From positions 1-64,000 of the forward strand of contig MEDY01000089.1 in assembly GCA_001724265.1 (NCBI GenBank): a stretch of DNA of 64,000 nucleotides, in the 5' to 3' direction. The notes under the pieces are model-generated. The model was not told where the DNA came from. It made no database searches and saw nothing but the letters and a program-made list of their open reading frames with translations. Below are positions 5,298-61,270 of the stretch, piece by piece; within the stretch, counting starts at the first letter, position 1, and the number at the start of each line of letters is the position of its first letter. The DNA comes from Rhizaria sp. SCN 62-66 (taxonomy: Eukaryota). The translations under genes were made by a program, and so were the position numbers.

Positions 5298-8200
5298 TTA
5301 GTGAAAGTTGTGTTGCATTGTGTGATAGTATTCGCCTTCATACATCACCATCGACGGCCCATTGTCCACCGCATTCACGCTGCCGCCATTGACGGGGCCA
5401 GCAGTCGCAACTTCAACAGCGACCGCAGCAGCAGCAGCAGCAGCAGCAGTTTTCTCAGTGCCAGTCAGATCAGCAGCAGTGTTGGTAGTGTCGTCATCGT
5501 CGAGAACGATAACATCGTCAGCAGCAACAGCGTTAGCGCCAGTGGCAAGCCCTGCAGCAGTAACAGCAGCGCCATTGTTAGCCTCGTAACCGCTGCTTCC
5601 ACGTTCGCGACCAACACTGTCATTGACTTCATCATTGTCGTTGTCGCCGTCGTCGCCGTCGTCGTCACTGTCGCCGACCGAGCCCAGCACGAGCCGCAGC
5701 GGCTTGATGGCGTCTGACTGAGACATGACGTCGTAATCACCCTGTTTGTCGCCATGCACAGTTTTGGTGAGGGGATCTCCAAGATGACACTGCTGATTCT
5801 GTTTCTGCTGCAGTGGCTGCTATTGCTGATGCTGCGACTGCTGCTGCAGGTGCACCGATTGCTGCTGCTGCTGCTGCTGCTGCTACGAGTCACCACCGTT
5901 GCCGTCTATGAGCACGCTGTTGAACTGATGATAGTAGCCGCCGCTGCCTTGTCCAGGCTGCATTCGACCGAAATCCCCCCACCGGCAACCGCCACCGCCA
6001 TTGTCACAGGCGCTGTGACTCGCACTGTTCTTTGTGAGAGAGCTGTCGCCGTTGCTAGAGGTCATCAGCGACTGCGAGCGCGCAGTCCTTTGCTGTTGGT
6101 GCTGTTGTTCCTGTACAAGCAGCGGAGCAACGCTCACATCGGTGGCAGGAGTAACATTCGGGTTGACAGCAACAACAGCAGCAGCAAAAGTCTCTGAAAA
6201 GCGCCTCGCTACAGTCTCAGAAAAGCGGCGCCTCGCTACAGTGTGCCGCTCTGCGGGGGCGGGTGCGGCCACCGGTGACAGCGGCTGCAGCGGCGGCGGG
6301 CTCTGCGGCGGCGAGCCAGACCCGAACGCCGCGAACGCCGTGGTTTCGTGCGCGAGCGCGGTGTGGGACTGGCTCTGCATCTCCAGCTGCAGTCGCAGAA
6401 GCAGCTGCGCCTGCGCCTGTGCGCGCGCCTCTGCGCCCCCCGCCTCGGCCTCAGACCCAGTCTTAGCTTTAGTCATAGCGCCCGCGGCAGTCTGCGCATG
6501 CGCATGCGCCTGCGCCTGTTCCTGTTCCGGCTGAGACTCTTGTTGCGACTGCGGCTGCAAGTGCGGCGGCGACTGCTGTTGCTGCTGCATTGGCGAAGAT
6601 TGCGGTTGCGACTGGGATTGCGACATGAACAGGACGTACGGCTTGAGGTTAAACATCGACTGTGACTGTCCGAGCGCGTCTGCGTCGTCGGTGCGACTCG
6701 CATCGCTATATACAACGACGCTGCCGTTCCTATCTTTGGCGGCACTCGCACGAGCAGCTGTCGCAGCAGCAGCAGATGTCACACCGCTCGTCTTCACGGC
6801 CAGAGGGCTAGCGACTGCGAGAGCAGATAAGGTGCGAGAGCTCAGGTCGATCGCTGCCGTCGTCGTCGCGTGGCGGCTTAACTTAGCGCCGCCGCCGGCA
6901 GCAAGGCCGCGACTGTGACTGTCTCTGTTGACGCCAGTGTTACTAGAGCTGCGGTGCACAGTAGTGCTTCTGTAGTTGCTCTTGGTCATGATGATGTCGA
7001 TCATATCGACGTCATTCGCGCGTGTCCGGGGCGACGGGGTGTACCCCGTAATAATGACGCCTGGCGACACGTTGACGGCGCTCTCGGCGTCCGTTGCCGG
7101 CACGATCACGGCGTCATCACTCGCGTCACCACCGCCATCACCACCAGCAGCAGCGGCGGCGGCTGCCGCGGCGGCGCGTTCGGCAGCGGCCTTCTTGTCG
7201 GCCTCTGCGGCGGCCCTCAGAGCCAGCGCGGCGGCGACGCTCCTGGCAACCTCGGCGACACGGTCGCTCTGAGGGGGCTGCTTAGACTGTGGACTAAGGG
7301 GCGACGCGAGCTCGGCGCCGCCCTCAGCGCCAGCGCCAGCGCCAGCGTTGTCGTTGCCAGTGCCCGCGGTGATAGCGGCGCTTGTGAGAGCGTTTGCGCT
7401 AGGGGACATACTGGCCAAGCGACGCTTCTTCTGGCAACCACTGCCGCTCGCGGCAGCGTTGTCGCGGCTGCGGTCGCCGCAGTCCTCAGACTCTGAGCCC
7501 GAACCCGTCTTCAACTCGGACAGGCGCCGCTCACGAGGTGCTCGAGAGCGTGACTTGGAGGACAGCAACAGTCTCGACGCGGCGCCAGTGACATCATCGC
7601 CGTCACTGTCACTGCCGGTCTCGGAGTCCGTCCCGTTGACTGAGCTCGAGTTGGCGTCAGACTGCGTGAATCCGGTTGTCTCGTTGTTGACCCAGTAACC
7701 CTGAGGCGACGGCGCGCGCCCGAAAGCGAAGCCGCCTCGGTCCACAGCGGCGGTGGCGGTGGCGGCGGCAGTGGTTTTGGGGCTGCGGAACGCGGCCAAA
7801 CGGGCTCCGATCGAGAGATGAGGGCCGATACCGCCGGCACGGCCACCGCCGACGAGACCACCGCTGACGCCGCCGCGGCCGCGAGAGTTGCTGCCCGCGC
7901 TGGCGGCGTGTCTATTCGCAGCCGGAGGCCCATTTGCAGCAGCAGCAGCAGCAGCGCTCTCGGCGGCGGCGGCGAGGGCGGCGGTGGCGGGAGTGCCGCA
8001 GGCCGTCGCGACCGCCGAGGCCAACGAGCCCGCAAGGGACAGCGGCGCCGACTCAGTGCCAGCGCCAGCGCCAGTGCCGGTGAAAGCGCCAGTGCCAGCA
8101 GCAGCAGCGGCAGCGGCCGCGTTGAGCGGTGCAGTGAGGGCGCGCTTGAGGCCGCGGGACTGGGACTGGACGATGCTCTCACTGGTGATGCTGAGGTAGG

Positions 8201-10769
8201 CCGAGAGAGTCGCATCGCGGGCAGCAGCGGCGGCGTTTGCTCTGGTTCTGTTGTTGTACACTGTGTGAGGGTTGTAACTGGGAGCGTAGACGTTTCTCGA
8301 TCCGTATCCGCTATTTGAATTGTTGTTATAATGTTGCTGCTGCTGCTGCTGCGGTTGTTGATTCACGCTCGCAGCAGCACTCACTGCTTGACCGTTATCA
8401 TTGCAATGGCTGTTCACGTACAGAGCAAGAAACGGCACGGAAATCGCCTTGTCCCGGCCCGCAGCGGCTTGACTTTTCTTCGACGCGGCGTGACTTTTGT
8501 TCGCCTCGAGCTCGCCCCGCACGACGCCAACCGCGGTGCGCGCCGCGTCGGCTTCCTTCTGCAGCCGCAAATCGAGCTTGCTGAAGTCCTTCGCGGCGGC
8601 GGCGGCGGCGGTGGCAGTAGCGGCGGCAGCGGCGGCGGCCGCGGTCGCATGAGGGCCAGCGGCGACGGCAGTCACAGCGGCAGCGGCGGCAGCAGTGGCG
8701 TTGACAGTGGCGGCGGCGGCGGCGGCGGCGGTGGTCGCTGCTGCGGCCTCCGCGATAGCCAGTCGCGCGCTGCCAGAGGCCTCGAGGAAGGCGAGCAAGT
8801 TAAGCCGCCACTCGGCGGGCGTCGAGAGCACCGTCGCGGCCGCAGGGAACGTGATCGCGACCGTGGGCGTGACTGTGGGCTGCGGTTGAGAGATGTGGGG
8901 CTGAGAGCTGCGAGCTGCTGCTGCTGCTGCTGCGGCGGCGGCTGCTGTGCTGTTCGCGGCGGCTGAGGCGGACGCAAAGGGCGTGTCGGCGGCAGTTGCG
9001 AGACTGCTGTGACCGTTATCGTGACTGCCGTGGGTGTAAGGGGTGCCGAGGAGCCAGTCCATGACTGTGCTTAGGTCTCGGTCGCTAGGACTTGCACTTG
9101 CCCCATTTGCACAACTCTGCTCACAGCAGTCAGTCATTCGCACCTGTTGTTGTTGTTGCTGCTGTTGCTGTTGCTGCTTGTGGTATTGATAGCGACAGAG
9201 TGCGAGCGCGCGGGTGACAAAAGCCGCCTCGTGCGAAAGATAGGCCGCGTCACGCGAAAGGTAAGCCGTATCAGACGGAGAGTAGGCCGCAGAAGCGGAG
9301 GCCAAGGAACTGTGAGCACCTAATAAGTGACTGTGAGCGGCCGACAAGTGACTGTGGGCTGGGCCCAGGGCAATGTAGTGCGCAGTCGCAGCCAGAGGCG
9401 CGAGAATTTGCTGTTGTAGCTGAGCCTGAGCCTGCGGTTGAAGCTGAGGCTGAGATTGTAATTGTGCACTCGCACTCGAGCTTTCGTTGGCAGCGCGTGA
9501 TTGCTGCTGCTGCAGCTGTAGTGGCAAGCGAGAGCGTGAGTGTGACTGAGTACCCGAGCGCGTGGGAGTATGCAAGTGTGTTTGAGGATGCGAGTGACCG
9601 TGAGCATCCGAGGGACCGTGAGCATCCGCGGCACCGGCACCTGCCGCGATCAGCGACTCGAGCTGCACTGGCGCCCGCGCTGGCGCCTGCGCTGCTGCAG
9701 CATTCCCATTAGCATTATCACTGGCATTCGCATTAGCACTGACGCTGGCACTGGCACTGGCGGGGGCGGCAGCGGCGTCGGCGTCGGCGTCGGTGTCGGC
9801 GACAGACACTCCAGGGCTCGTTCGCGCGCTGCTATCGGCGTCTGCATTGTTGGCATTGATGTGATTGGTGATATTGTTATTGTTCTTATGCTCTTGTTTC
9901 AAAACGAGTGCGCGCTGGCAGTCAGGTGCGCTCTCAGTCGCCGCACTCGCCCCAGCCCCCGGCTCACTATCTCCCGTGTTTATCGTGTTGCCCGTGTCAG
10001 TCCCTTGCGCGTCAGCGGCGTCGGCGTCAGTGTCTTTGGTTATGTCGGTGTTTGCATGCTTTGGTGCCACGGCAGTAAATTCAGTCGCAGCAGATGTTGT
10101 AATCCCAACAGCTTTAACAGTGTCAGTCTCCGATTCAATCCCAGTATTTGCTTCAAATGCAGCAACAACAGCAGTCGTCCCAGCTTTCACGGGAGCGTCT
10201 CCAGCAGCGCCGGTGACAGCAATATCAAGTGCCTACTTCGCGGTGACACTGCAATTGTTGCCCCCCGAGCTCGTAACGACGGCGAGATACGCAGCAGACT
10301 TAGTTGTATGCGCTCCCGCAGCCGCATTCGGCACGTGCAACAACGCCGCTAAGGACGACGATGACGAAGACGACGATGAGGACGATGAGGACGGCACTGG
10401 CGACGCGGGCGCTGCAGCCGACGCCGCGTGCGGGCCATAAGCCAAGCCCGCGGAGCGCTGCTGCGAGAGCCGCTGCGACTGTGAACGTAAGTGCGAGTGC
10501 GAGTCCGACTGAGAGTCCGACTGAGAGGGCGACTGAGAGGGCGACTGAGGGGGCGACTGAAGGGGCGACTGAAGAAGCGACATCGGGAGCTGGAATACCG
10601 CCAGGCTCGCGAGGCGCGCTGAGGTATGCTCCAATGCGGCGGCGCTCTAACTGGCGCCGACACCGTCAACCGCTGTCAGTCCTGCGGCCGCGGTGTACGT
10701 GTCGGAGCCGGGACTGAGGCGCGGCGGGGCGGCGGGGCCGGCGCGGGGCGGGGAGTTGTCGGAGCTCAT
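5298..10769 (-). CDS. Intronless 1823-aa low-complexity (Ala/Ser/Gln-rich) hypothetical protein with four in-frame TAG codons
   Basis: ATG at 10769 (MSSDNSPPRAGP...). One frame joins track ORFs 10233..10634, 5883..10190 and 5298..5759. The only interruptions are TAG at 10649-10647, 10235-10233, 5885-5883 and 5822-5820. Ends TAA at 5300-5298, where AT-rich sequence begins. Confidence 0.8.
10501..10572 (-). repeat. Coding minisatellite, six 12-nt units (QSPL/QSPP/QSPS/QSDS)
   Basis: The plus strand reads GAGTCCGACTGA x2, GAGGGCGACTGA x2, GGGGGCGACTGA, AGGGGCGACTGA. Confidence 0.85.
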
Positions 10770-11227
10770 GCAGGATCGGCAGAGCGCGGCTGAGTGGACA
10801 GATAGAAGACTGCTGGAGAGAAAAATTAGAGCGAAAAATAATCAATTAAAAGTGGTTGTGAGTTATACCGGGGTTTTATCGGCCTTGACGATAAGTTGAA
10901 TGAGCTGAGGTGAGGGGACAAAATCAAATCTGGGCGCGGAGGCAAACCACCGAGAAACACCACAAAACAATTTAGCTCCAGATCGAACTTTCACTTCTTT
11001 GTTCTCGGCACCCCAGCCGTCTCTATTATCACAACTTCGGCAATGTTTTAACACCGCCTTTAATTGCTTATGTTTTTAATTGTTTTGTGCTCACATTTCG
11101 TTCTATCGCTGGCTCTGGCTTTGCTTTTGCCTAGAGTCGAGTCACCACCACACCTGGTTGTGTCTTCGCTATTCACCCCTAGACCTAGTCACAGCCTTCG
11201 CTCACGCGCTCAGCATTCTTCTCACCA

Positions 11228-12020
11228 ATGAGTAGTGGTACGTGTCTATCTTTATTTACTCTGTGTTTCTCCCGGAACTCTACTCTTTGCCTACTTTGAC
11301 GCTCGTTGTTACCTTTCTCTGATCCCTCCACTGAAGTGGTTTCTCATCTGCTCACTATCATTCTTGCACTCCCATATCTCTCTCTCAATCATATATCCCG
11401 TATTTTATGCTGAATTTGACGCTTTTGTCTCCTCTTATCACCCTCACAGAGGACCCTAGCAACGCCGTACTGCCCCTGGCTCGCATCAAGCGCCTGATGC
11501 GCAGCGACGAGGATGTTCGTGTACGTGACAACTGTGCCGCATATATCTCGCTGAAATCAAAATGTTTATCTTAAAGAACAACAAGGAACACTTTTATAGT
11601 TATGATAAATCAATCTGTATAACTTTGTGACACAATGTTCTACTTTCACCGACTTGTGTCAATTTGCCATACTCACTTAATCTCACTCCTCAATCTCTCC
11701 CCCATTTGCCGCCCCTCGCCCGCCGCCACCACTGACAGATGATCTCCGCTGAGACACCCGTGCTCTTCTCCCGCGCGTGCGAGCTCTTTATCGCGGACCT
11801 GACGTCCGCGGCGCACGCGGCGGCGCAGCAGGACGGCGAGCGCATCCTCGACCGCAACCACGTCATGCGCGCGATCGCCACGGACCCGCGCTTCGACTTC
11901 CTCCGCATGGTCATGCCCGCGAATCCGGCTGCGACGACCGCGGCGGGCGCCGGAGCGGGCGCCGCTGGCGTCGGCGCGGGCGGCATGATGGGCGACGGCG
12001 ACGACGAGGATGACGAGTAA
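11228..12020 (+). CDS. NF-YC/HAP5-like histone-fold protein (CBFD_NFYB_HMF family), 120 aa
   Basis: Exons 11228-11237, 11450-11520, 11739-12020; both introns GTACGT...CAG. The spliced protein has [39 protein letters not shown]...FDFL, the NF-YC/DPB3-type histone-fold signature. Stop TAA. Confidence 0.88.
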
Positions 12021-13014
12021 GCGTCAAATTGAGTATGAGTAAAGTTATGGCGATAAGAGAAGAGTTGATACTGTGATTGGCTGTGATATAAACATTACAG
12101 TTTGAATTTCAATTAGAATTTGATGAAAATACACCAAAAAACACTATTAAACCAAAGACGAGCGTCGACCTGACTGAGCTTGCGGTATAATCCTATTGAA
12201 GCAAGCATATAACGTTGTTGCGATAAGTATGTTTGTTGGAAAGCAATATAATGTATTATTTGTCCGTCATCATCAATGACGAATAAATGAGGAATAACAA
12301 CAAAATGAGGAACTAAGACACAATTTCAAATCATGCGCATTCAGCCATTCGTGTCGTGCTCAAAGCACAGTAAGCTCTTAAACACACTCAAAACATGTCA
12401 TGAGCATGTGAAGCTATCAAGTGAGTGCGTTGCTTCGCTTCTATCATGCTCTCTTTCTCTGTCTGTGTCGCCGTAACAGTAACTGGCACTGTTGATCGTA
12501 CTTACATGTTAAGACTTACGACTAGCGGCAGTGCTAGGAGGAAGAGCAAGTAAGTGGGAGCAACAAACGTACAGTCAAAGAAGCAAGACCAGGCGTCACA
12601 ACGAACACTGACGAGTGTTAGTAATGCAACAATGACAGATTAGCAGAAGGATAAGAGAATAAAGAACTGTGCGCAAAGCAGAGACGAAAACAACGAGCGA
12701 GCTCGATTATTCGTGTGTTTTGTTGGTTTTGATTGTTGATTGTTATTTGCTATAAATTATAATCGCGTAATGATTTTGTACTTGTAATACTAAAAACTAT
12801 GATTGCATGAAAATATTACGAAAAACTATGTGAATCTGTGTGTTTCTTGTCGTAACAAGAACAAAAGTTTGAAAGGAGTCGATCTTGAGTCAATCAGTCA
12901 AAGAGAAAAGAGAGAAACAGACAAAAGAAAGAAAGAGTGACTTGACGGAACAATGTCACCAAACAAATCAACTCCAAGAACAGAGAAGAGGAAGGTTACC
13001 GGTTAGTTCTTTCG

Positions 13015-16000
13015 TTAGTTCCTCCTGAACGACGCCAGTCCAAAGGCCTGCTCGCCGGTGGCTGCCAGCGTCGCCGCCAACGAGCCCTGAGCCCCCATAC
13101 CGCCACGGCCTTGGCCTTGCTGTTGCGGCTGCCGGTAATGTCCCTGTCCTTGCTGCTGCTGCTGCTGCTGCTGCTGGAGAGCGAGTTGCTGCTGCAGACT
13201 CATCTGCTGCGGCGGCGGCTGCATGCCCCCCCTCGGCCCCATCACAGGCCCGCTACTGATATTCCCCCCGCCGCCGCCGCCGCCGCCGCCGCCCTGAGGC
13301 AGGCGGGGGTTCCTGGCGACGAGGCGCCGCGCCTCACCCACCGTGCGCGGCCGGTCATACCCCGGCGGCAGCCGCCCGCCAGCAGCAGCGCCAGCGGCAG
13401 CGCCGCCGGGAGCGCTGAAGCCCTGGGGGCCGGCGCCGGCGCTGCTCGCGACAGGCACCGAGCCCGCGGTGTGGGCGTGGGCGGGGGCGTTGTTGTAGCG
13501 GGACACGGGGCCCGCGCGCGAGGCCGACTGGGAGCCGTACATCGGGCCCGCGGCGGCAGCGCTGCTGTTGTTGCTGTTGTTGACGGCCCCCAGGTCCAGG
13601 CGGTAGTCGCCCGCGCCGCCGCTGCTGCTGTCGAGGCGGCCGCGGCGGGGCGTGCCCAGTGAGCCCATTCCCAGTCCAGCGCCAGCGCCAGTGCCAGCGG
13701 CGGCGCGGGCGCCGGAGAGCGTGCCGGCGAGACTGCTGCCGGCGCTGAGCTTGGCCGCGTTCCCGTACATCAGTCCGCCGCCGCTAGGACCGTTGTGGCC
13801 AGCGCTCTGGCCGCTCTGGCGGTACACTGAGGACGGGTAGGGGGGCTGCACGGCGGCGTGGGTGTACTCGTACTCGTACACCTCGCCGCCACTGCCGCCG
13901 CCGCCGCCGTTGCCGTAGCCAGCGCCGCCAGTGTAGCCGTTGGCGTTGCCGCCGTTGCCACTGTTGAGCGAGTTGAGGTATGCACCGTAGCCGTTGTAGC
14001 CCGCGCCCTCCGCGCCGCCGGAGCCGCTGTTGTTGCGCGAATGGTGTGCGCTGCCGCTCGCAGTGCCAGCGCTGTACTGCGGCAGAGACTGCTGCTGCTG
14101 CTGGTGGTGCAACTCGTCGCTATAGTGCTGTTGCTGGGGCGGGTAGTCGGTGCCGCCGTAGTGCTGCTGGCTGCTGCTGCTGGTGTAAAACTGCCCTTGC
14201 TGCTGCGGGTTGTTGTTGTTGCTGAATGGACCGCTGTGGTGTTGGTTCGCATTGGCCGCGCCGTAGCTGGCGCCGGCGCCGGCGCCTCTGATGCTGTGGC
14301 TGTTGGGGTGGGGCGCCCCGCCCGCGGAGTACGACACGCGCATCCGCCGCTCAGTCGGCCCCGCGCCGCCGCCCTGGCCGCCGCCGCCGCCGCCGACGGT
14401 GCGGACAGGGACACTTACATTGCCGTGGGCGCCGCTTACATTGGCCGGAAGGGAGCCCGAGTTCGAGGCCCCCGCCAGGCTGTTGCTGAAGGGCCCGCTC
14501 CCGCTCGCCGCAGGAGCGGTGCTGCCCGCGATGCGCGCGCCCGAGGTACTTAGACTCGCGTGTAAGTACCCACCGCCGCCATCGTCGTTGTTGACGGAGC
14601 CAGCGCGCGCGGTCGAGGGCGTTCCGGGCGGCGCGTAACCCTGATTGGCGTGGGAATTCGTGCTTGCGTTCATCGCGCGCGCGGTGCGGGGGGTGCCCAG
14701 ACCCATCGCGTTGTTCCCACCGCCGCCGCCGCTGCCGCCGCCGCCAACAGGGACGTCGTCGTGGTTGTGGTACACCGCCGCGGGGGAAGCGCCGCCACCG
14801 CCACTGTACAAGTCAGCATTGTCGTTGCTGTTCAGGGGCCGCAGAGGGCCGCCAGAGCCAGGCCTGGAGGTCGTGCCGGTGCCGGCGCCAGAGTCAGAGC
14901 TCTGGTAGCCGCCGCCGCCGCCGTAGTGACCGTGGGTGTGACCGTGGGAGTGACCGTGAGCGGGGCCGCCGGGGTAATTGCCGTTGTCGTAGTTCTCGCC
15001 GGCGTTGCTGCTGCTAGCGTACTACCGGCTGTTGCTGTAGCCATTGTTGTACTGCTGCTGCTGCTGTAACTGCATTTGGTGTTGCTGCATTTGCTGCTGC
15101 TGCTGCTGCTGCTGGTGCGCGTACGTGTTATACCCGCCGCCCAGCAGCCCGCCGGTGCCGGATCCGCCCAGCTGCTCCCGCTTGCGCGCCTCCACGGCCG
15201 CGCGGTCGGTGCCGCCCGCGCGCCGCACGGCCGAAGCCATCTCGGCCGCGCGGCGGTCGGCCTCGGCCAGCTTGCGCGCCAGCATCGCCTCGCGGGTACT
15301 TAGACCGCCGGGGGTACTTAGACCGGGGCCCGGGGCAGGGGAGCTGAGACCACTGTTGTTGCTGCTGTTGGCGTTGCTTGCACCCGTGGTGGTCGTTGTG
15401 TGCGCGGTCTGGACGGGGTACTGCGAGTGCTGATGCAGAGTCGCCTGGTTGCTGTTCTGGTACTCCGAGCCAGCGCCAGAGCTAGAGCCAGAGGGGCCAG
15501 AGCCGAGGAGACCGTGAGCAGAGTGACCGTGAGCGGCGTCGTCATTGTTAGCCACAGGCGCAGGCGCAGGCACAGGGACCGATGCCCAGGACCGCTGGCG
15601 CACATGCGTCCTCCCCCCAGCGCCCGCGCCAGAGCCAGTGGAGCCGGGGCCGGAGCCGGGGGGCGGCTGCGGAGTCAGGAGACCGGGCCCGCCGTTGCCG
15701 TTGCCGTTGGGGGAAGTGAACGGCGAGGGCTGCGACGGCGGCCGCGGCTGCATCGGCTTTGCGCCACCAGAGGTTGAGTTCGCAACGCTGACACTGACGC
15801 CAGCGATCCCGGAACCACTTCCGCTCGAGGTCACAGCGGTGGCAGCGGCAGCGGGGGGCTGGGGCGACACCGGCAGCGGCGTGTCGTTGGTAACCACGGT
15901 GGGCTGCGGCGGGGCGCCGATGACGACGCCGCCGTGGATGCTGCTGTCGCCCGCGATGCGCGGCGTCGCCGAAGTACTGACACCAGAGGTACTTCCACCG

Positions 16001-31700: not shown

Positions 31701-34700
31701 TCTTATGAGCGAGGAGCCTCTGGCGCGCGCCGCGCTCTTTTCGCTCTTCTTGACGTCGAACAGCAACACTGTTGTGGTGCCCGGGACGCTGTCGAGTGTG
31801 CCGTCGCAGCCGCCGGCGCGCAACCGCATCTTTGCCCCCACGTGGTAGCCCGCCACGGCGTCGACGATGACGGCGATCTCTGGCAATCCCGCGACCTCGG
31901 CGGTGGCCATCTCCCCGAGCGGACTGCTGATTTACGCCACGACGGCAACGACGATGTACGTGTCGCGCATCAAGGCGTTGACGCTGAACATGTCCACTCC
32001 GGAGGTGCCGCTCTTCCGCCGCATCGATCTCGACACCTCGTACAGCAGCGGCTGGACAAGCATCTTTGTCGACACCGTCGGCCGCCGTCGCGCCATCACG
32101 GTCGCGCCCGACGACACGACGCTGTTCGTCAATGTCGACAACACCGTGCTCTTGGTGCTCGAGACTAACGGCAAGGACGGTATTTTGATCGCACGCGTGA
32201 CCCTTCCGACCGTCGAGTCCCCCGGTCCCTCGGCCACGTTCAACGGTGGCACGGAATTGCCCATTTTTGCGCCGCAGCTTTTGGGCTGGACCGAGCGCTC
32301 TCGCACCAACGCTACCGCGGTGGCGAGCGTCGTTGTCGCCGTCGGCCCCGTGCTGCACCGCTACGGATTGTTTTACGACAACACGGTTCAGTTCATCGCC
32401 ACGGAGCGGCCGCTGCCCGTCGCGTCCGGCTACGTCTCCTACGCCACCGCGCTCGCGTCTTTGCCGTCCGGCAACGGGTTTGTGGTGTGTTACAAGACCA
32501 CTTTCCAGCTCGGTGACTACGGCGCCAACTGCTTCAAGAGTGCGCGCTCTGACGGTCTTGCCACGCAAATCGTGACGAATCTCTACTCCAACGCCGCGGC
32601 GGGTGCCTGGGTCACCGCGATTGACGTATGTACGCCCTCCAGCTCCGGCGCAGACGATGCCGGCGGTGATGGCGGCGGCGACTGCGTTTTCCTCGCCCTC
32701 CGTTTGTCTTACACTCGCACATCTCTATTGAACCCCAATATTGTCTCAAACACTGACTCGACCACGGGCAACTCAATCATCCGCCTCACCGCCAGCACAA
32801 CCGGCGTTGTCGTCGCCAGCCAGGCTGCGATGGTGCCCGGCGCGCCAATCATCGACCTGAAGATTACATCGGGCGCCAACATGCTGATGCTGCTGCGCGC
32901 CTCGGCTGGTGCTTCGGGCGCCACGCAGGTCGCCGGGCTCACCGTGCTCGCGCGCGTGGCCGCCGGCGTGTACCAAGCCATCGGCACGCCGCTGCAACCG
33001 GTGGCCTCGGATACGCTGTCGCAGTCATCAGCGAGCGCGGCGATGTTCACGCCGCAGATCGTGGCGACGGCGGACCGGGAGTCGTTTCTCGTCGCGGCGG
33101 GCGGAAAAACATCCACGTGGTTCAGCTACTTGCTGACGCCTGTGCTGAACATCGCGACCCTCACGTTGCCGTCCAGCGCACAACTGAAGCTGAGCTACTA
33201 TGTGTGGGGAACGAACACGACCAATTTGTTTACCACGTCCACGCTTCTTTCGCTGAATGACACGACCGTGGAGGTCTCAGGTAACTATCGGATGGCTAGC
33301 TATGTTTCGACTGCGTGTACTGACATCACTAGCAACTGTAACGTAACTCTATCACAGAACCCGGGTGATGTTGTAGGCAACTTTTCCGACGTCATGGTCG
33401 ACCTTCCTTCGCCGTATACATCACAACTGTCTTTGAGCAATAAGCCCCGGCCTGGGTTTTCGACTGCAGCGAGCGTGTTCACGTTGCCCACTGTCGCGCG
33501 TGCGCTTCTACGAGAGATGCTGGTTCCGCACATCATCGCTATTGCTGACGTCGTTCCGACCACTGAGGTGAGTTGGTTTGACACTTCGATGACTGGTTCT
33601 AACTTTGGCGGTAGCGGTGTGCGTAACGTTATTGCTGCCTGGTATACGAATCCTGTGTTTGGCGCTACCACGAAACTCAATATCATTTTTGCGCCGCAGC
33701 TCGCAACTAACAACATCAATTACTTTACGCTTACAATTCCTCATGGTGCAATGAGCTCAAGCCTGGTCACTTTTACGGCTCTGAACACCGGATGGTACGC
33801 GAACTTCTCGTGCTTGCCAGTTACCTCGACCAACAAAAAGCAGGTCTTGTGCACCCGTGTTTGGAATTCCGCGGCACCCGTTGCCAATCAAACCTACGTG
33901 TTCCACGCTGTATTCCCCGTCGTTCTATCGTCGCCGAGCTCTTTAGACACGCCGACCGACGGCGCCACCGCTGTGCTTGCCATGAAGGACGGCTTGTCCG
34001 ATACGGTCGCCAACAAGGCTGTGGCTTCTGCGTTTTACTCGCACACGCCGCTCTACGTGCCGCCCAATCAGATTCCCGCGGGCTACTTTGGCCACACACA
34101 CCGCACCCGCATTGCACTGCTGCCTAACTCAACGGTGGACCTCTCGTGGATCGCGCGCGGCAAGACGCTGTGCTACGCGTTCGCAGCCAACCACCGCGGC
34201 TGCTTCCACAACGAAATCTTCAGCTCGGAGATCCGCGGTGACCTTACTGCGGCCGCAGTGAGCGCGACGGCGCCGCTGAACAGCAACTCGGCCGCGTACA
34301 GCGCGCACGGCACGCTCGTGAGCATCGTCACTTCTGCCGACTGGACCTACGCGGCGATACGCTTCTACACCAACGCCAACCGCGCGCCGCAGGCCGTGCC
34401 GGAGACGTACCAGTACGCTGACTTGCCGTTTGACCCGGCTCTGTTCCATGAGCGCCTCGGCTACAGCAATCGGTCGCGCATTCATGTTGTGCAGTCTGCA
34501 GAGGCGTTCGGCGCGATTGTCATCGTCCACAACGACGCGTTTAACGTCGTTATGCTGGCGCGCCTGAGCTCGCACACGCTGCGCGCATCAGGCCGCGCGC
34601 AGAGTCTGACGGCGGAGCTGATGAAGCGCATGATGACGCCCATCAGCTTTGCGCCGCCCGCATCGCTGGGCACCGGCGTGCCCGTGTCAGCCGACTCGCT

Positions 34701-51113: not shown

Positions 51114-53849
51114 TCACATATCCTCATCTTCTACCCTCGATGCAAAGTTGCAATGTATGATTGACACATTGGCATTGTATACACCGACACTGCATTTTTC
51201 AGTCCCACAGCGCGCCTGGAAGTGTCGCAACACCGTCGCATCGAACGGCTTGTTCCCGCTGTCGTGCGCCGCAGGCATAATGCCATCCACGCACGACATC
51301 ACGCGGCCGACGGGCACGGCGCCGTGCAGCAGACTCACGGGGCACGGCTTGAACACGATGAACCACGGCGTGTCGCCGGGGCCAGGTTGACTGCACCAGC
51401 GCTTCAAGGGTTCGGAAACCACAGATCGCGGGCACACCAGCACTGTGCCAACGGGGTGCGTCCCGGCGGCGCCCGCAGCAGTCTCGGGGAGCTCGCCGTA
51501 AACGGCGTCGCTCGCGGGCAGCGCGACGGCGGACGCCGCGTTGCACGGGAGCTGGTGATCGCGGCCCTCGCCGTGGTAAAGCGTAACAAAGGGCAGCGAC
51601 GCAGCCGCGCGGTCGGGAGGCACGAAACACGTGTGGAGCAGAGCACCGAGCGCGTACGAGTCAAGCGCAAGGCGGAAATGCGCGGCGTTGCAGGGAAACC
51701 TTTTGTCGTTGAGCCGGATGACGAGACTGTACGTGTGCTGCGCCTGCAACTCGCTGTCGATCACCATCGACATCGTCATCACAACGTCCGCAGTCATGCG
51801 CTCGGCCCCCAGCCTCTCCCAAGCATCGACGAGCACGCGCTCGCGCGCCCTCGCCTGCAACAAAGCCAGCGCAGCCGCGCTTGGCGCGCCGTTAACGCGT
51901 TGCGGGGGGACGGGAGTGACCGCGAGTGAACGCGTGTGGATATTGTACGCAATCCGCCGGGGAAAACCGCTTTCTTCACGACTGCACGCAATGTGGGCAT
52001 CGAACGCGGCTTGCCAGTCATCCTGATCCTGCTCCTGCTGCTGCTGCTGCTTTGCGTGTGCAGTCGTCTGGTGACCGCCGTGCTGCATGAATGCACGCAT
52101 CTCAACGAGGGCTTGTTGACGCGACTCCTCTGTCGCGGCGGCTGTGTCGGGCGCAATCACATTCATCCGCGCAAGCAGCGCGCGCAGTTGCGTCAGCTCG
52201 TGCAACACAGTGCAACCCCCGTCCTAGGCGCGCAGGCAGGCGTCGTAGCGCAGCAGCTCGAGCGCCTGCAGCCCGCGACAGGCGATGAACTCGGTCACGA
52301 AAGGGTTCCACGCCGCGATACCGCTGTCGCGCACAGTCAAGTCGGGCGAGGTGTCGCTGGTGCAAATCAACAAGTTGAGCAGGTGCAGCAGCTGTGCGAT
52401 GCGCCGTGCACTCGGTGGTGCTTCGGGACCCTCTTGACTCGGCGGCGGCAGCAGAGAGCGCTTCAGGAAGGCGCAGCACGTACCGACGGCGCCAGCCGCG
52501 AGCAGCTGTAGCGCCGCGCACGCCACGTCGGAGCTGCTCATCAGAACACTCTCAAACACAGAAAGCGTGCTTTTGAGAAACACTTCAGAGTTGGACTTAT
52601 AGTCACTGTAAAAATGATCATCAATATAGGCCAACAGTCGCTCGAAATATGGCGCCGTTGAGAGACGCTGAGCAAAACCAGAGACGTAAGCTGCAAAAGC
52701 GGCAAAGAGCCTCATTCGAAAGATCGCATTTTTCATCGTTCTAATCTTTTTCTCGTTAATCTCGCTGATCACGAGCTCAACGCGGCGCTCATTGAACGCG
52801 AGACTAAACGTCTCTGCATCAAACAAGTCGAGAAACATCTCCAGTGCGGGCGCCATAAGTGAGTCCAATTCCTCCAACATCGGCTCAAAGTCTTCACTGG
52901 CCGCAAAGTCCGCAAGGTCACTCCGCCACTGCTCTGCAACGTCAGAAGCATCACTAGGTGCGCCATCGCAATTGCCAGGGCCATCGCCGTTTTCGCTTTT
53001 GTTGTTATTGTCGCCACCACCCTCGAGATTGCAGCCGCAGGCAAAGATGCTCGCCAGCGCATCGCAGGCGGCGCGGTTGATGTACACGTCAATGCCGCCG
53101 AGCGCAGTGCGGCGCTGCATGACCTGGCGCCACAGCGGGACAAAGGCCGAGACGGCTGAGTACGGCAGCCGGGTCACTGCGGCCGCTGCTGAGGCAGCCG
53201 CTGCGGAGGCAGCCGCTGCCGAGGCGGCTGCAGCGGCTTCAGCGGGTTGGCTTGGGGCTGCTCTCAGCAGCGCGACGAAGCACTTGGACATATCGCAGTA
53301 GTTTGAGTCGCCCCGCCTCATTGACGACGGGCTGGCCAGCTCGAGCTGCGCGCTGTGCATATACCAGAACACGTGCTCCAGGGCGGCAAGCGCGGCGGAC
53401 GCCGGGATTGTCGCCTTGCGGGCTATATTTACGATGATGCGGAAGACGAGGGCGACACGTTTGGGGTTGCTCTGGGGAGCACTAAAACAAGGCAGGAGAG
53501 CAGTCACCTGCTCGACGGCGCCGCACGCGATAAGACAAGCCCCGCCGTCGTCGGTGCTGGCAATCAACTGAAGCAGCGCCAATGTCATCCAAGCGCGCTC
53601 CTTGCGTCCTGTTGTCCTTGTCCTGGAGAGCTTGCTCCCCCCCGCGTGGGCGGTGTAGGCGGCTTGCATGAGCCACTGCAGGAGCAGTGGAGCAGCACCG
53701 CTTTCGCTGAGAATTTCTGCCGCGTCGGGACGCTCCTGACAAACGGCATTAAGCTCGAGCAAAGCAGCGTCAAGATCGGCTGCTGCCAGCGAAGTGACCC
53801 GGCTGATCGCGACGTGGCAGCTTTCAAGGGACAACTCAGAGGAGCTCAT
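51114..53849 (-). CDS. 911-aa protein: ARM/HEAT-like helical N-terminus plus degenerate cyclophilin-like C-terminal domain; one in-frame TAG
   Basis: ATG 53849. Track ORFs 52224..53849 and 51114..52208 share a frame and are separated only by TAG 52226-52224 (LRA*DGGCTVLHEL). Ends TGA 51116-51114. ARM-like motifs SESGAAPLLLQWL, IACGAVEQVTALL, LAAGAVGTCCAFL. The C-terminal RLNDKRFPCNAAHFRLAL...HPVGTVLV...WFIVFKPC..LLHGAVPVGRV follows cyclophilin motif order. Confidence 0.72.
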
Positions 53850-55003
53850 TACGACCAGCAGTAGTTGGAGCTACTTCTCGTAAAATTCCTGGAAAACACG
53901 ACCAAGACTCAGACCTCGAATAGAAACATGTAGTTTGACCTTAGAAAATTGTAGAACAATGCCCACGTGCGAACTTTGGTATGGACTACTCTTCACGCGC
54001 ACAACATGTAACATGGTAAAGAGCGGGGGAGGGGGGATCGGGAGGAGTGAGAGTTTGGACTGCAAATGACAGATCAGTTGACAGCGGCATGCGATCTTCT
54101 TCACTTCATAGAAAATAAGGAAATCAAGTAGAAAACACGAGTTCAAGTTGTACATAAGCAAAAAAGTGACATTGTCGATGGATTTACATCAAAAAGTAAT
54201 TCCATATCCACGATGACGTCGCCCAAACCAAATCGAGCAACGCACCACAAACGCGTGTTACAATATTGTTTGTACGCTTTCATGACGAGAACTCCTCTAA
54301 AGAGAAGAGTTATGACGCGCAGATGTTTGTGCACGTATCAATCACGTATGGATCTCTTTAGTCCCTTTGTTTTTATGTCCGCACACATGTGCATTCCCTT
54401 TCAAGTCGTTTAAGACATCCTGCACGAGAGCATACATTTCGGACTCACCGATACTTCGTAAAAGTAGATCGATACATTCGACTGAATATTGACGGTGATT
54501 CGTGAAGTGAGTCTGTGTTATGTATGACTTAAAAGATTTGGGTTAAGTAGATCGAAGTTGTAAGCGTGTACATCGTGTACTTTTGTAAGAGTGTACTTCT
54601 CACAAGGCACTGATGCAACTTACAGGATTATATAATGCCAACGGCAAGCCACACAGGATCAACAACAAAAGAAAAAAAAAAAGAGTGGGAAAGAGAAGAT
54701 GTCATACAAAAAGAAACAAAACGAAGAGAGAAAGAAACAGAAGAGTGTGCAGGCTTCTTTTGCACACGTGACAGGAAAATAAAAAAAGATCAAAGAGCTG
54801 GGTAAAACAACACGTGACAAAACCAACTTTAATGTAACAGGAACAAAAACGCAAGCACATCACAACACACGATAAGTACGTACTAACGTCCATCGTCGTA
54901 ACGTGCGCTTACGTTTACATCCGAGCGAGTCTGGGAGAACCACCCAAGCAACGCGACCTCACGAACCTCTCCACGACAACACAGCCTGACTTAATAGCGG
55001 CGG

Positions 55004-59309: not shown

Positions 59310-61270
59310 ATGTGGTCTCGCCTCCGCCTTGCCCGCCCCCTCGCGGCGCGCTCCGGCCTTGCCACCGTGACCTCTGCGCTTGCCACCCAGCGCCTTGCCA
59401 CTGCCGGCCCTCTTGCCGCCCCCGCGCGCCCGCTCTCCCTCGCCAGCCTCAGCTCCAAGCCTGCGACTATGAAGACGGGCTCGACTGCAAAGCCCTCCTC
59501 TTCTGCGTTCGCCCGCATTACCCTGACGCGCCTCGTCTCGGTCACCTCTGTCGCCGCGGCCCCCGCCCGCTCCGTGTCGGCTTCCGCAGCGCTGTTCAGC
59601 TAGCCGCAGGGTGTCGTGATCGACATCGACCCCACCGCGACCGCGCGCGTCACCTCCTCCTACCCCTCCTCCGCCGCCAACTCGAGTGACGCCAGTCCAA
59701 GCTCTGGCACGGACACGACCGAGGCGGACGCGGACCTGCGCACGGCGCTGCTCACGCAGGCGCTGGCGTATGTGCCTGACTACGGCTGGAGCGACGAGGC
59801 GCTTCTCAAGGCTCTCGCAGACAATGGGCTCTCGGCCTCGAGCTTCGGTTTGTTTCCCAACGGCGCAGGGGACCTGGTCGAACACTTTGTCGCCACCGCC
59901 AACGCCGCCACTATCAACCAAATCCAGGTATGTCTTCACACTTTACTACAAAAGAAGGGAATATCTTGCTATGAAGTTGTTTTATCCCGTTTTATGTTCG
60001 TTTGAAGTCGCATGACGCTATGCTAAAGTTGTCTCATGCTTTAAAGCTCACTTGACACTTGCTATGTTCTTTTGTCGTTCCGACCCTCACAGGACCGCCC
60101 CGACTTCGACACGATGCGCACCCCGGCGCTGCTGACGGCGGCGCTGCGTCTGCGTCTGGAGCAAAACATTCCATACCTGCCCCGCCTCTCGCAGGTACGT
60201 CTTGTTGGATCGTAACTTTGAGCGAGGATATCTCGCGCCTGTCACAACATATTGTGTTTATTTTACAACATTTCGGTATATTATACATGTATTTGTATAT
60301 AAATATTGTTTTATATCCATATAACTCAACTATGCTGACGTATCTCCCTTCTTGTGTCCCCGCCCTCGTGTTTGTTCACACTCGTCCCCTCTCAGGCGCT
60401 GTCCGTGGCGCTGCGCCCGTCGGCCGTGGCGCCGCTGGCCACGCACGTGGGCTGGCTCGTGGACGACCTGTGGCACCTGGCGGGCGACACGGCGACCGAC
60501 TCGGCCTGGTACACCAAGCGCGCCTCGCTGGCCGCGGTGTATCTCGCCACGGAGCTCTACATGATTACCGACAAGTCCCACGGGTTCCAGGACACGTGGG
60601 CCTTCCTCGACCGCAGGATGAAGGTACGGGCTTATGTTTATTGCCTCATTGACAGAGCTACCCAGAAGATAAACAGTGAGATGCCGTGTTATCCTCCGGG
60701 GTGCAACTTCAAAACTATTGCTCAGCCACTTTATGACGATTTGACTCTCTTCATTGATGTTATTTCAGAATTTTTAGATTGAAATAATGAGTTTTGCTGA
60801 CTTCGATTTTTCTGTTTTTAATATCCTCTCACACAACATCTATTTGCATTCTCTGTATCTCAATCATCCTTCCCTCCCACTCTCTAGGACGCGGCCTCCG
60901 TGTCCACGCTGCCCTCGCAGGCGCAGGACACCGTCGTCAAGGTGGCCACCACCGCGGGCGAGATTGTCGCACGCATTATGGCCGACTTCGCCCCTCAGGG
61001 CGCCTCGGGGGCCGCCGCCTCCGCCGCCGCCTCGGCCTCAGCGGCCGCGAGCTCGATCACCGCCGCGTTCTCCAACGTCGTCTCCAGAGTCGCCAGCAGC
61101 GCCAACAACAACGCCAATACCGCGAATACTCACAGTGCCACTGCTGCCGGTGCCGCCGCCGGCGCTGCTGCGGGGGCAGCCGTTGACGCCGCCGTTGACG
61201 CCGCCGCTGGCGCTGCTGCCGGCGCCGCAGCCGGTGGCACTGATGCCATCAAGGCCACGGCCGACGCCGC

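Follow-up and report, generated by a model that had tools for sequence, protein, structure and literature searches.

The window (the whole 64,000-nucleotide stretch analysed here) is contig C89 of a eukaryotic assembly of 34.9 Mb in 714 contigs, and the feature under study is the in-frame TAG codon of a long low-complexity gene on its minus strand (Table 1). The gene, for which Pfam gave no match, appears to start at the ATG at 10769, and two of its TAGs lie in a Gln-rich tract that reads GAC TCG TAG, seven CAG, CAA TCG GTG CAC CTG, three CAG, and TCG CAG CAT CAG CAA TAG CAG CCA on the minus strand. Four further isolated in-frame TAGs were found in other genes of the window (15022, 31846, 52224 and 59601), the last in a gene that resembles COQ9. 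About 0.9 Mb of the assembly was examined, much of it chosen around conserved families.

Table 1. Coordinates of the TAG-bearing gene, its Gln-rich tract and the in-frame TAGs of the window.
Feature	Position	Strand	Remarks
Low-complexity gene (Ala/Ser/Gln/Asn-rich)	5298..10769	-	1,823 codons plus TAA if TAG is a sense codon; four in-frame TAGs
In-frame TAG, first of the 1,823-codon gene, codon 41	10647..10649	-	identical letters in the run X4 contig
In-frame TAG, second of the 1,823-codon gene	10233..10235	-	identical letters in the run X4 contig
Gln-rich tract	5790..5890	-	coding, unalignable
In-frame TAG, third of the gene, head of the CAG run	5883..5885	-	
In-frame TAG, fourth of the gene	5820..5822	-	
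True stop TAA of the 1,823-codon gene	5298..5300	-	coding score and GC drop sharply beyond
In-frame TAG, low-complexity tail of NEK-like kinase gene	15022..15024	-	
In-frame TAG, middle of a 5,249-codon frame	31846..31848	+	
In-frame TAG, gene of a repeated family	52224..52226	-	
In-frame TAG, close to the N-terminus of COQ9-like gene	59601..59603	+	

The preliminary description of this DNA held that the tract is translated in a frame open to the TAA at 5300, and our results agree. In the 173 codons that follow the second tract TAG (5301-5819), G occupies codon position 1 at a frequency of 0.53, and a dicodon model trained without this gene gave a score of -0.04, as compared with -0.10 in the 900 nt before the first tract TAG and -0.89 beyond the TAA. 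The frame of the gene scored best of the six frames at 5301-5819, and only 55 of 5000 shuffles of this stretch were free of TAA and TGA. Because the coding signature continues past the last TAG up to the TAA at 5300, the tract is not a 3' untranslated region, which was the possibility that the preliminary description had raised against its own view. The comparison with other runs, from bioreactor, wastewater and sludge samples that contain the window, was made on contigs and not on reads, and runs with small shares were excluded as evidence. A contig of run X4 spans 9189-11873 with zero differences and thus has the same TAGs at 10235 and 10649. The tract itself is unconfirmed in other runs, as none of the contig pieces listed bridges 5793-5892 (flagged as a repeat), and with the same limit no allele difference at a TAG occurs among the differences listed.

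The behaviour of TAG was then compared with that of the other stops. When gene ends were defined as stops preceded by 80 or more coding-like codons and without coding sequence downstream, 58 of the 89 were TAA, 30 were TGA and one was TAG, and this single terminal-looking TAG is followed by 16 further codons and then TGA. Another fourteen TAGs continue into coding sequence, one of which is intronic. TAG accounts for 24 of 143,770 called codons, although at least one of the 24 is probably a wrong-frame call, and this is ~0.3% of the Glu codons (24 vs 7,108). It is found in frame in conserved single-copy genes, namely eRF1, UBE2J1, a USP5-like gene and kinases, and the base after it is C in 8, G in 8, A in 5 and T in 3 of the 24 cases. 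The dynein exons contained no TAG in 30,056 codons, where about 5 were expected at the mean rate. UAG is almost certainly a sense codon in this genome, with UAA and UGA still acting as stops. The preliminary description had also read TAG as sense, and the gene ends, the TAG inside an intact eRF1 exon and a tRNA with the CUA anticodon are all in line with it.

Not all TAGs within domain matches are exonic. The kinase family searches gave 5 exonic TAG sites, the kinase TAG at C208 being left out, and TAGs in four other loci (L103, L104, L109 and L110) were dropped as they look like intron 3' ends. Those in matches to kinesin (1/51), DEAD (1/43) and Ras (1/31) were found to be intron ends instead of sense codons, matches with a mixture of stops, in SNF2 (2/19) and UCH (three), were counted as introns from this mixture alone, and no in-frame TAG occurred in ABC (0/19), AAA (0/21) or WD40 (0/117) matches. 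One kinase gene (L107, G000:C148:56000-62492), from a family of at least seven members, has three in-frame TAGs. A paralogue with 89% identity has TGG in place of one of them, which reflects either decay or tolerance of a radical change. Under the standard code, TAGs would be assembly errors, parts of tiny introns or nonsense mutations of genes in decay, and the three-TAG gene and the intron ends suggest that some TAGs may be of this kind. The standard code is very improbable as the explanation and already largely refuted, as the sole eRF1 gene found has its TAG in an intact and gap-free exon, the same letters recur in a second assembly (maybe of the same sample) as do two window TAGs in run X4, TAG is nearly absent at gene ends, a CUA tRNA is present and eRF1 is altered at UAG-reading positions.

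The search for eRF1 gave three matches, one to eRF1 (L039, G000:C63:103370-103699) and two to exons of a Pelota-like gene. The TAG of this eRF1 gene stands at the position of human E107, well inside a 237-codon exon that is intact apart from it and aligns to residues 30-266 of human eRF1. A metagenome scan returned one identical contig, which retains the TAG, and 31 distant eRF1 loci without a close relative. The protein carries T32S and G57S at positions where T and G are kept in 117/117 homologues, has T58K and L126M in addition, and keeps E55 and Y125. According to PMC5304391, T32 forms a bond with the G of UAG, and Iotanema has another residue at this position. In Fig. S2 of that paper, counted by eye, G57 is kept in 26 of 26 standard-code rows, and 18 of 22 UAR=Gln rows and the rhizarian exLh have a change there. 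Tetrahymena motifs placed in human eRF1 increase UAG readthrough (PMC4695839); in yeast eRF1, T32A is lethal and E107A halves readthrough (PMC4381064). The T58K change was rejected as a marker of reassignment, since it is present in standard-code ciliates (PMC5304391). The closest eRF1 found, P0004, is 84% identical, keeps T32 and G57 and shares rare motifs, and its source is a candidate for a standard-code sister lineage.

The occurrence of UAG in the mRNA for the factor that should recognise it, beside its absence from the 30,056 dynein codons, raises the possibility of feedback, although the chance of at least one TAG in a gene of ~435 codons at the mean rate is about 7%, and the UAG at codon 107 may be there by chance. 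The class-I release factor genes of Mimivirus (R726) and Megavirus (mg280) also have an internal stop-type codon, which offers a precedent for feedback (PMC3521657), and by this likeness the internal stop could limit the synthesis of the release factor itself. Unlike in these viruses, the gene is cellular here, it has one UAG and this is a sense codon genome-wide. In plants, release-factor feedback works through another mechanism (PMC5397192).

The residue placed at UAG was approached through conserved columns, which were available at the orthologue level for three TAG sites, those of eRF1, UBE2J1 and a CaMK-like kinase (L049). In eRF1 column 107, the 117 homologues (3 of 120 matches were left out for a length above 530 aa) have E in 106, D in 10, V in 1 and Q in none, and the nearest relatives found among named organisms, Guttulinopsis vulgaris and exLh, also have E (by eye). 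The UBE2J1 column has D in 105, E in 10, H in 2, S in 2, N in 1 and Q in none of 120 homologues. Columns that are at least 90% acidic in four alignments hold 1 of 25 of the organism's own Q residues, 47 of 59 own E residues and 2 of 3 TAGs, and both close paralogues of the kinase with the motif MEYL*GG have Asp at the TAG position. An invariant-Gln column carrying TAG was not found among the sites examined. The preliminary description had named the assignment of TAG to another residue by conserved columns as the result that would overturn Gln, and outside the window both strongly conserved columns are acidic.

The Pfam bits summed over seven sites were 638.0 for E, 636.4 for Q, 625.1 for Y, 622.9 for L and 620.4 for W. 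These broad profiles exclude Leu, Tyr and Trp and do not separate Glu from Gln. Of the preference for Gln stated in the preliminary description, the part directed against Leu, Tyr and Trp thus stands, but its choice of Gln over Glu is unsupported by the acidic columns. A-to-I editing to Trp was rejected, W having the lowest score. Six of seven TAG-bearing segments had no Pfam match, and the TAG of the USP5-like gene lies opposite a gap in the sole structure match.

A pattern for CUA tRNAs with a short variable loop gave six matches, one of which is a tRNA (G000:C84:76008-76080, hereafter the C84 tRNA). This putative gene is present in single copy, scores 58 bits against the Rfam tRNA model and is followed by a T run, and the composition of its contig is close to that of the window (r=0.93). 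The first five acceptor pairs are identical to those of both own Glu tRNAs. In the acceptor stem and discriminator it matches each of two Glu tRNAs at 11 of 15 positions, Lys at 8, Asp at 7, each Gln tRNA at 2 and Trp at 0, and in the T arm the matches (of 17) are 15 and 14 for Glu vs 12 and 11 for Gln. The C84 tRNA has U11-A24, U13-G22:A46, U35 and A37 and lacks base 47, which are listed among the determinants of Escherichia coli glutamyl-tRNA synthetase (GluRS; PMC9976931). Those in the D arm are mostly common to tRNA-Gln(CUG), but A46 is not, being found in the Glu tRNAs where tRNA-Gln(CUG) has U46. An engineered human tRNA-Glu(CUA) inserts ~95% Glu (PMC12204705), and thus a eukaryotic GluRS can work with a CUA anticodon. 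Five copies of tRNA-Gln(CUG) were found, all identical and unchanged, and a Gln-derived CUA tRNA was not found by the pattern search of an assembly that may be incomplete. Free-energy folding of the C84 tRNA was uninformative (z -1.5). ARAGORN labelled it 'Pyl', a name given for the CUA anticodon. A tRNA-Pyl has one base between the acceptor and D stems, a 6-bp anticodon stem and a 3-nt variable loop. This identity was rejected, as the C84 tRNA has a canonical body that fits RF00005 end to end (pylS/pylBCD were not searched for).

The explanation that we favour from these comparisons of sequence, at a probability of about 0.74, is that UAG alone has been reassigned in this nuclear genome and serves as a rare sense codon mainly for Glu. 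The single-copy C84 tRNA would have derived from a tRNA-Glu, would be charged by GluRS and would outcompete an eRF1 whose recognition of UAG may be weakened by T32S and G57S. The tract TAGs would most likely be CAG-to-TAG transitions that now place Glu in a tolerant Gln-rich tract.

Several observations weigh against this assignment. The orthologue-level columns cover only 3 TAG sites, the homologue sets are rich in animals, and P0004 has Val at position 107, which means that this column can change in this lineage. The whole-molecule identity of the C84 tRNA to Glu is only 47/73, tied with His and an intron-containing Tyr tRNA, and this 64% is below the 69-93% of the suppressors of Oligohymenophorea sp. 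PL0344 (PMC10553269). A tRNA gene that has an intron or whose variable arm is long would escape the pattern, and further CUA tRNAs may be lacking from the assembly. Other observations lean towards Gln. The gap between E and Q in the Pfam sum is only 1.6 bits, and Gln has a frequency of 0.068 around TAG, as compared with 0.043 around Glu codons and 0.152 around Gln codons. The column of the L049 kinase, from 20 orthologues at 55% identity or more (the other 129 aligned matches being more distant), has Q in 7, K in 4, V and M in 2 each and E, L, R, H and A in 1 each, and the two closest orthologues both have Q. The TAG of a ubiquitin-fusion gene is CAG in 5/5 paralogues; this gene is the copy of a repeated family at L124 (G000:C681), and the composition of its contig is atypical (r=0.25). 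TAG also recurs in Gln runs (3/39 sampled matches), and the corresponding polyGlu pattern GAGGAGTAGGAGGAG gave 0 matches, though with almost no power.

These Gln-leaning sites would be explained if UAG were read as Gln, as in Iotanema, either by an unassembled Gln suppressor or through charging of the C84 tRNA by glutaminyl-tRNA synthetase, and E. coli amber suppressors are often glutaminylated through U35 (PMC9976931). We regard this as improbable given the absence of Q at the conserved eRF1 and UBE2J1 columns, the lack of an invariant-Gln column with TAG and the poor likeness of the C84 acceptor to Gln tRNAs. Moreover, tolerant sites should show CAG-to-TAG transitions whichever way UAG is read, and the TGG paralogue of the three-TAG kinase gene means that TGG, and not only CAG, gives rise to TAGs by transition. 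TAGs in young families may be a mark of decay. Because of these transitions and of possible decay, paralogue TAG sites say little on decoding.

The same holds for the tract, which the preliminary description had taken to single out Gln. Its proposal that both tract TAGs came from CAG by transition is accepted as probable, but a C-to-T change in a CAG tract tells the origin of the codon and not its reading. CTG, CAC and CAT, each one step from CAG, stand in the same tract, which means that changed residues are tolerated there. Genome-wide, the pattern (CAG)3-TAG-(CAG)3 had 80 matches, and in 39 sampled matches the best frame was Ser in 21, reverse Ala/Thr in 13, Gln in 3 and other in 2; by extrapolation, Gln runs of the genome contain TAG ~6-8 times vs ~310 for CAA. 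In the coding sample, the 77 windows with three CAG on either side had CAA in 8 and TAG in none, and the 141 with two CAG on either side had CAC in 5 and CTG, CGG and TAG in 1 each. In Gln runs, the synonymous CAA thus outnumbers TAG by tens of times, and TAG is about as rare as residue-changing variants. A disfavoured synonymous codon could give the same rarity, and the tract therefore neither singles out Gln nor decides the residue. The enrichment of TAG in polyglutamine over other runs was proposed earlier as a check. The codon does recur in Gln runs, but the comparison with polyGlu is powerless because (GAG)2-N-(GAG)2 windows number only 10 per 143,770 codons, so that a rate as high as in polyGln would still give less than one match.

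The low use of UAG bears on another explanation, in which the codon is ambiguous: it would be mainly Glu but Gln in a sizeable fraction of cases, or else a part-time sense codon at which eRF1 also terminates, as an intermediate stage with possible eRF1 feedback. The fraction of ~0.3% of Glu codons is small beside Iotanema, in which UAG makes up ~8% of Gln codons (PMC5304391), and the empty dynein exons, the one suppressor gene vs 8 pattern matches for tRNA-Glu(CUC), the retention of E55 and Y125 in eRF1 and the mixture of acidic and Gln-leaning sites would all fit it. However, four TAGs stand in one gene, there is an early TAG in an essential gene, gene ends hardly use TAG and the bases after TAG reveal no shared readthrough context. 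Rarity would also be seen if the reassignment is young and codon bias strong, and ambiguity of UAG appears unlikely to us. A related and rather doubtful proposal is that codon reassignment has been caught early, with one Glu-derived suppressor, UAG at ~1 in 6,000 codons, an eRF1 that still partly reads UAG and its own UAG 107 acting as a feedback switch.

Introns of the GT-AG type and some 11 dynein heavy chains are present in the genome, and the organism is therefore a flagellate. Six eRF1 motifs that are rare among homologues (1-2/120) and two HSP90 motifs seen in 0/120 are common to the G. vulgaris rows (by eye); two further HSP90 motifs are frequent (95 and 105 of 120) and were given no weight. 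The best HSP90 matches are at most 71% identical. These motifs point to a flagellated sainouroid rhizarian. G. vulgaris most likely uses the standard code and Rosculus has a gene ending in UAG (PMC5304391), which would make the UAG change here independent of that in exLh. The 18S rRNA of sainouroids is extremely divergent (PMC6133090), and that of the assembly is also very divergent, but its contig is not tied to the genome by composition (r=-0.3) and is possibly from another organism. This 18S rRNA gene (L211, G000:C706, 1501-5945) has four group I introns, and a stretch resembling a His-Cys-box homing endonuclease was seen by eye near 2090-2580 of the same locus. Because of its divergence, its four introns and its composition, the 18S was left out of the lineage argument. 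The ubiquitin genes (L122-L129, L206-L209) are divergent monomers or fusions, several of which begin with Met-Ser-Met-Gln, a start reminiscent of the insertion in rhizarian polyubiquitin. Of 23 ubiquitin matches, 12 were read, and none of these showed a tandem polyubiquitin.

UAA and UAG are nearly always reassigned jointly, the few exceptions described having Leu, Gln or Ser at UAG, or Lys/Glu where neither codon remains a stop (PMC11687900). The rhizarian exLh (Sainouroidea, UAG=Leu; PMC5304391), probably of the same rhizarian group, resembles the present case in that only UAG is reassigned, UAA and UGA are stops and eRF1 G57 is changed. Unlike in exLh, the residue here is Glu or Gln, with Leu 15 bits below Glu, UAG is very rare and a candidate tRNA gene was found. 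UAG alone is also reassigned in Iotanema spirale, Hartmannula sinica and Trochilia petrani (UAG=Gln) and in three phyllopharyngean metagenome-assembled genomes (UAG=Leu) (PMC5304391, PMC11687900), and eRF1 T32 is altered both in Iotanema (T32G) and here (T32S). The acidic conserved columns, the Glu-type suppressor, the unrelated lineage and the much lower use of UAG set this genome apart from Iotanema-type codes. In Oligohymenophorea sp. PL0344 (UAA=Lys, UAG=Glu; PMC10553269) the tRNA-Sup(CUA) is likewise most similar to tRNA-Glu, but here UAA is the main stop (58/89), there is one suppressor gene vs ten and the organism is not a ciliate. Glu at UAG is shared with peritrich ciliates (PMC11687900) and Blastocrithidia (PMC12153298), where UAR=Glu; these couple UAA to UAG, and UAA is uncoupled here. 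In the literature searched, which most subscription papers lie outside, no report of UAG=Glu with UAA kept as a stop was found in the accessible text, and UAG=Glu appeared there only with UAA reassigned.

Among the neighbours of the 1,823-codon gene, a spliced gene at 10918-12098 (+) is divergent from it, and its GT-AG joints are seen at 11236-11449 (runs X5 and X7) and 11520-11739 (run X7). The region 19464-50047 (+) contains very long frames of 1,518, 5,249 and 3,683 codons with one TAG at 31846, and by eye these may form one giant membrane protein with a signal peptide, Sushi-like and Cys-rich repeats and C-terminal membrane helices. The repeated protein family, with its ubiquitin-fused copy at L124, has a member at 51114-53870 of the window.

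Standard annotation cuts short eRF1 and other genes in this genome. A nuclear code that combines UAG=Glu with UAA as its main stop would be new, and if the lineage call holds, sainouroids would have uncoupled UAG twice, with different residues. The use of UAG is so low that this genome is a candidate for an early stage of reassignment, which bears on the choice between codon capture and an ambiguous intermediate, and the candidate tRNA, the two pointed eRF1 substitutions and P0004 with its T32 and G57 make the steps of reassignment testable. If the early-reassignment proposal were true, the eRF1 gene would represent, in a cellular eukaryote, the kind of release-factor circuit seen with bacterial RF2 and in giant viruses, and the change would be the second independent UAG-only reassignment in Sainouroidea.

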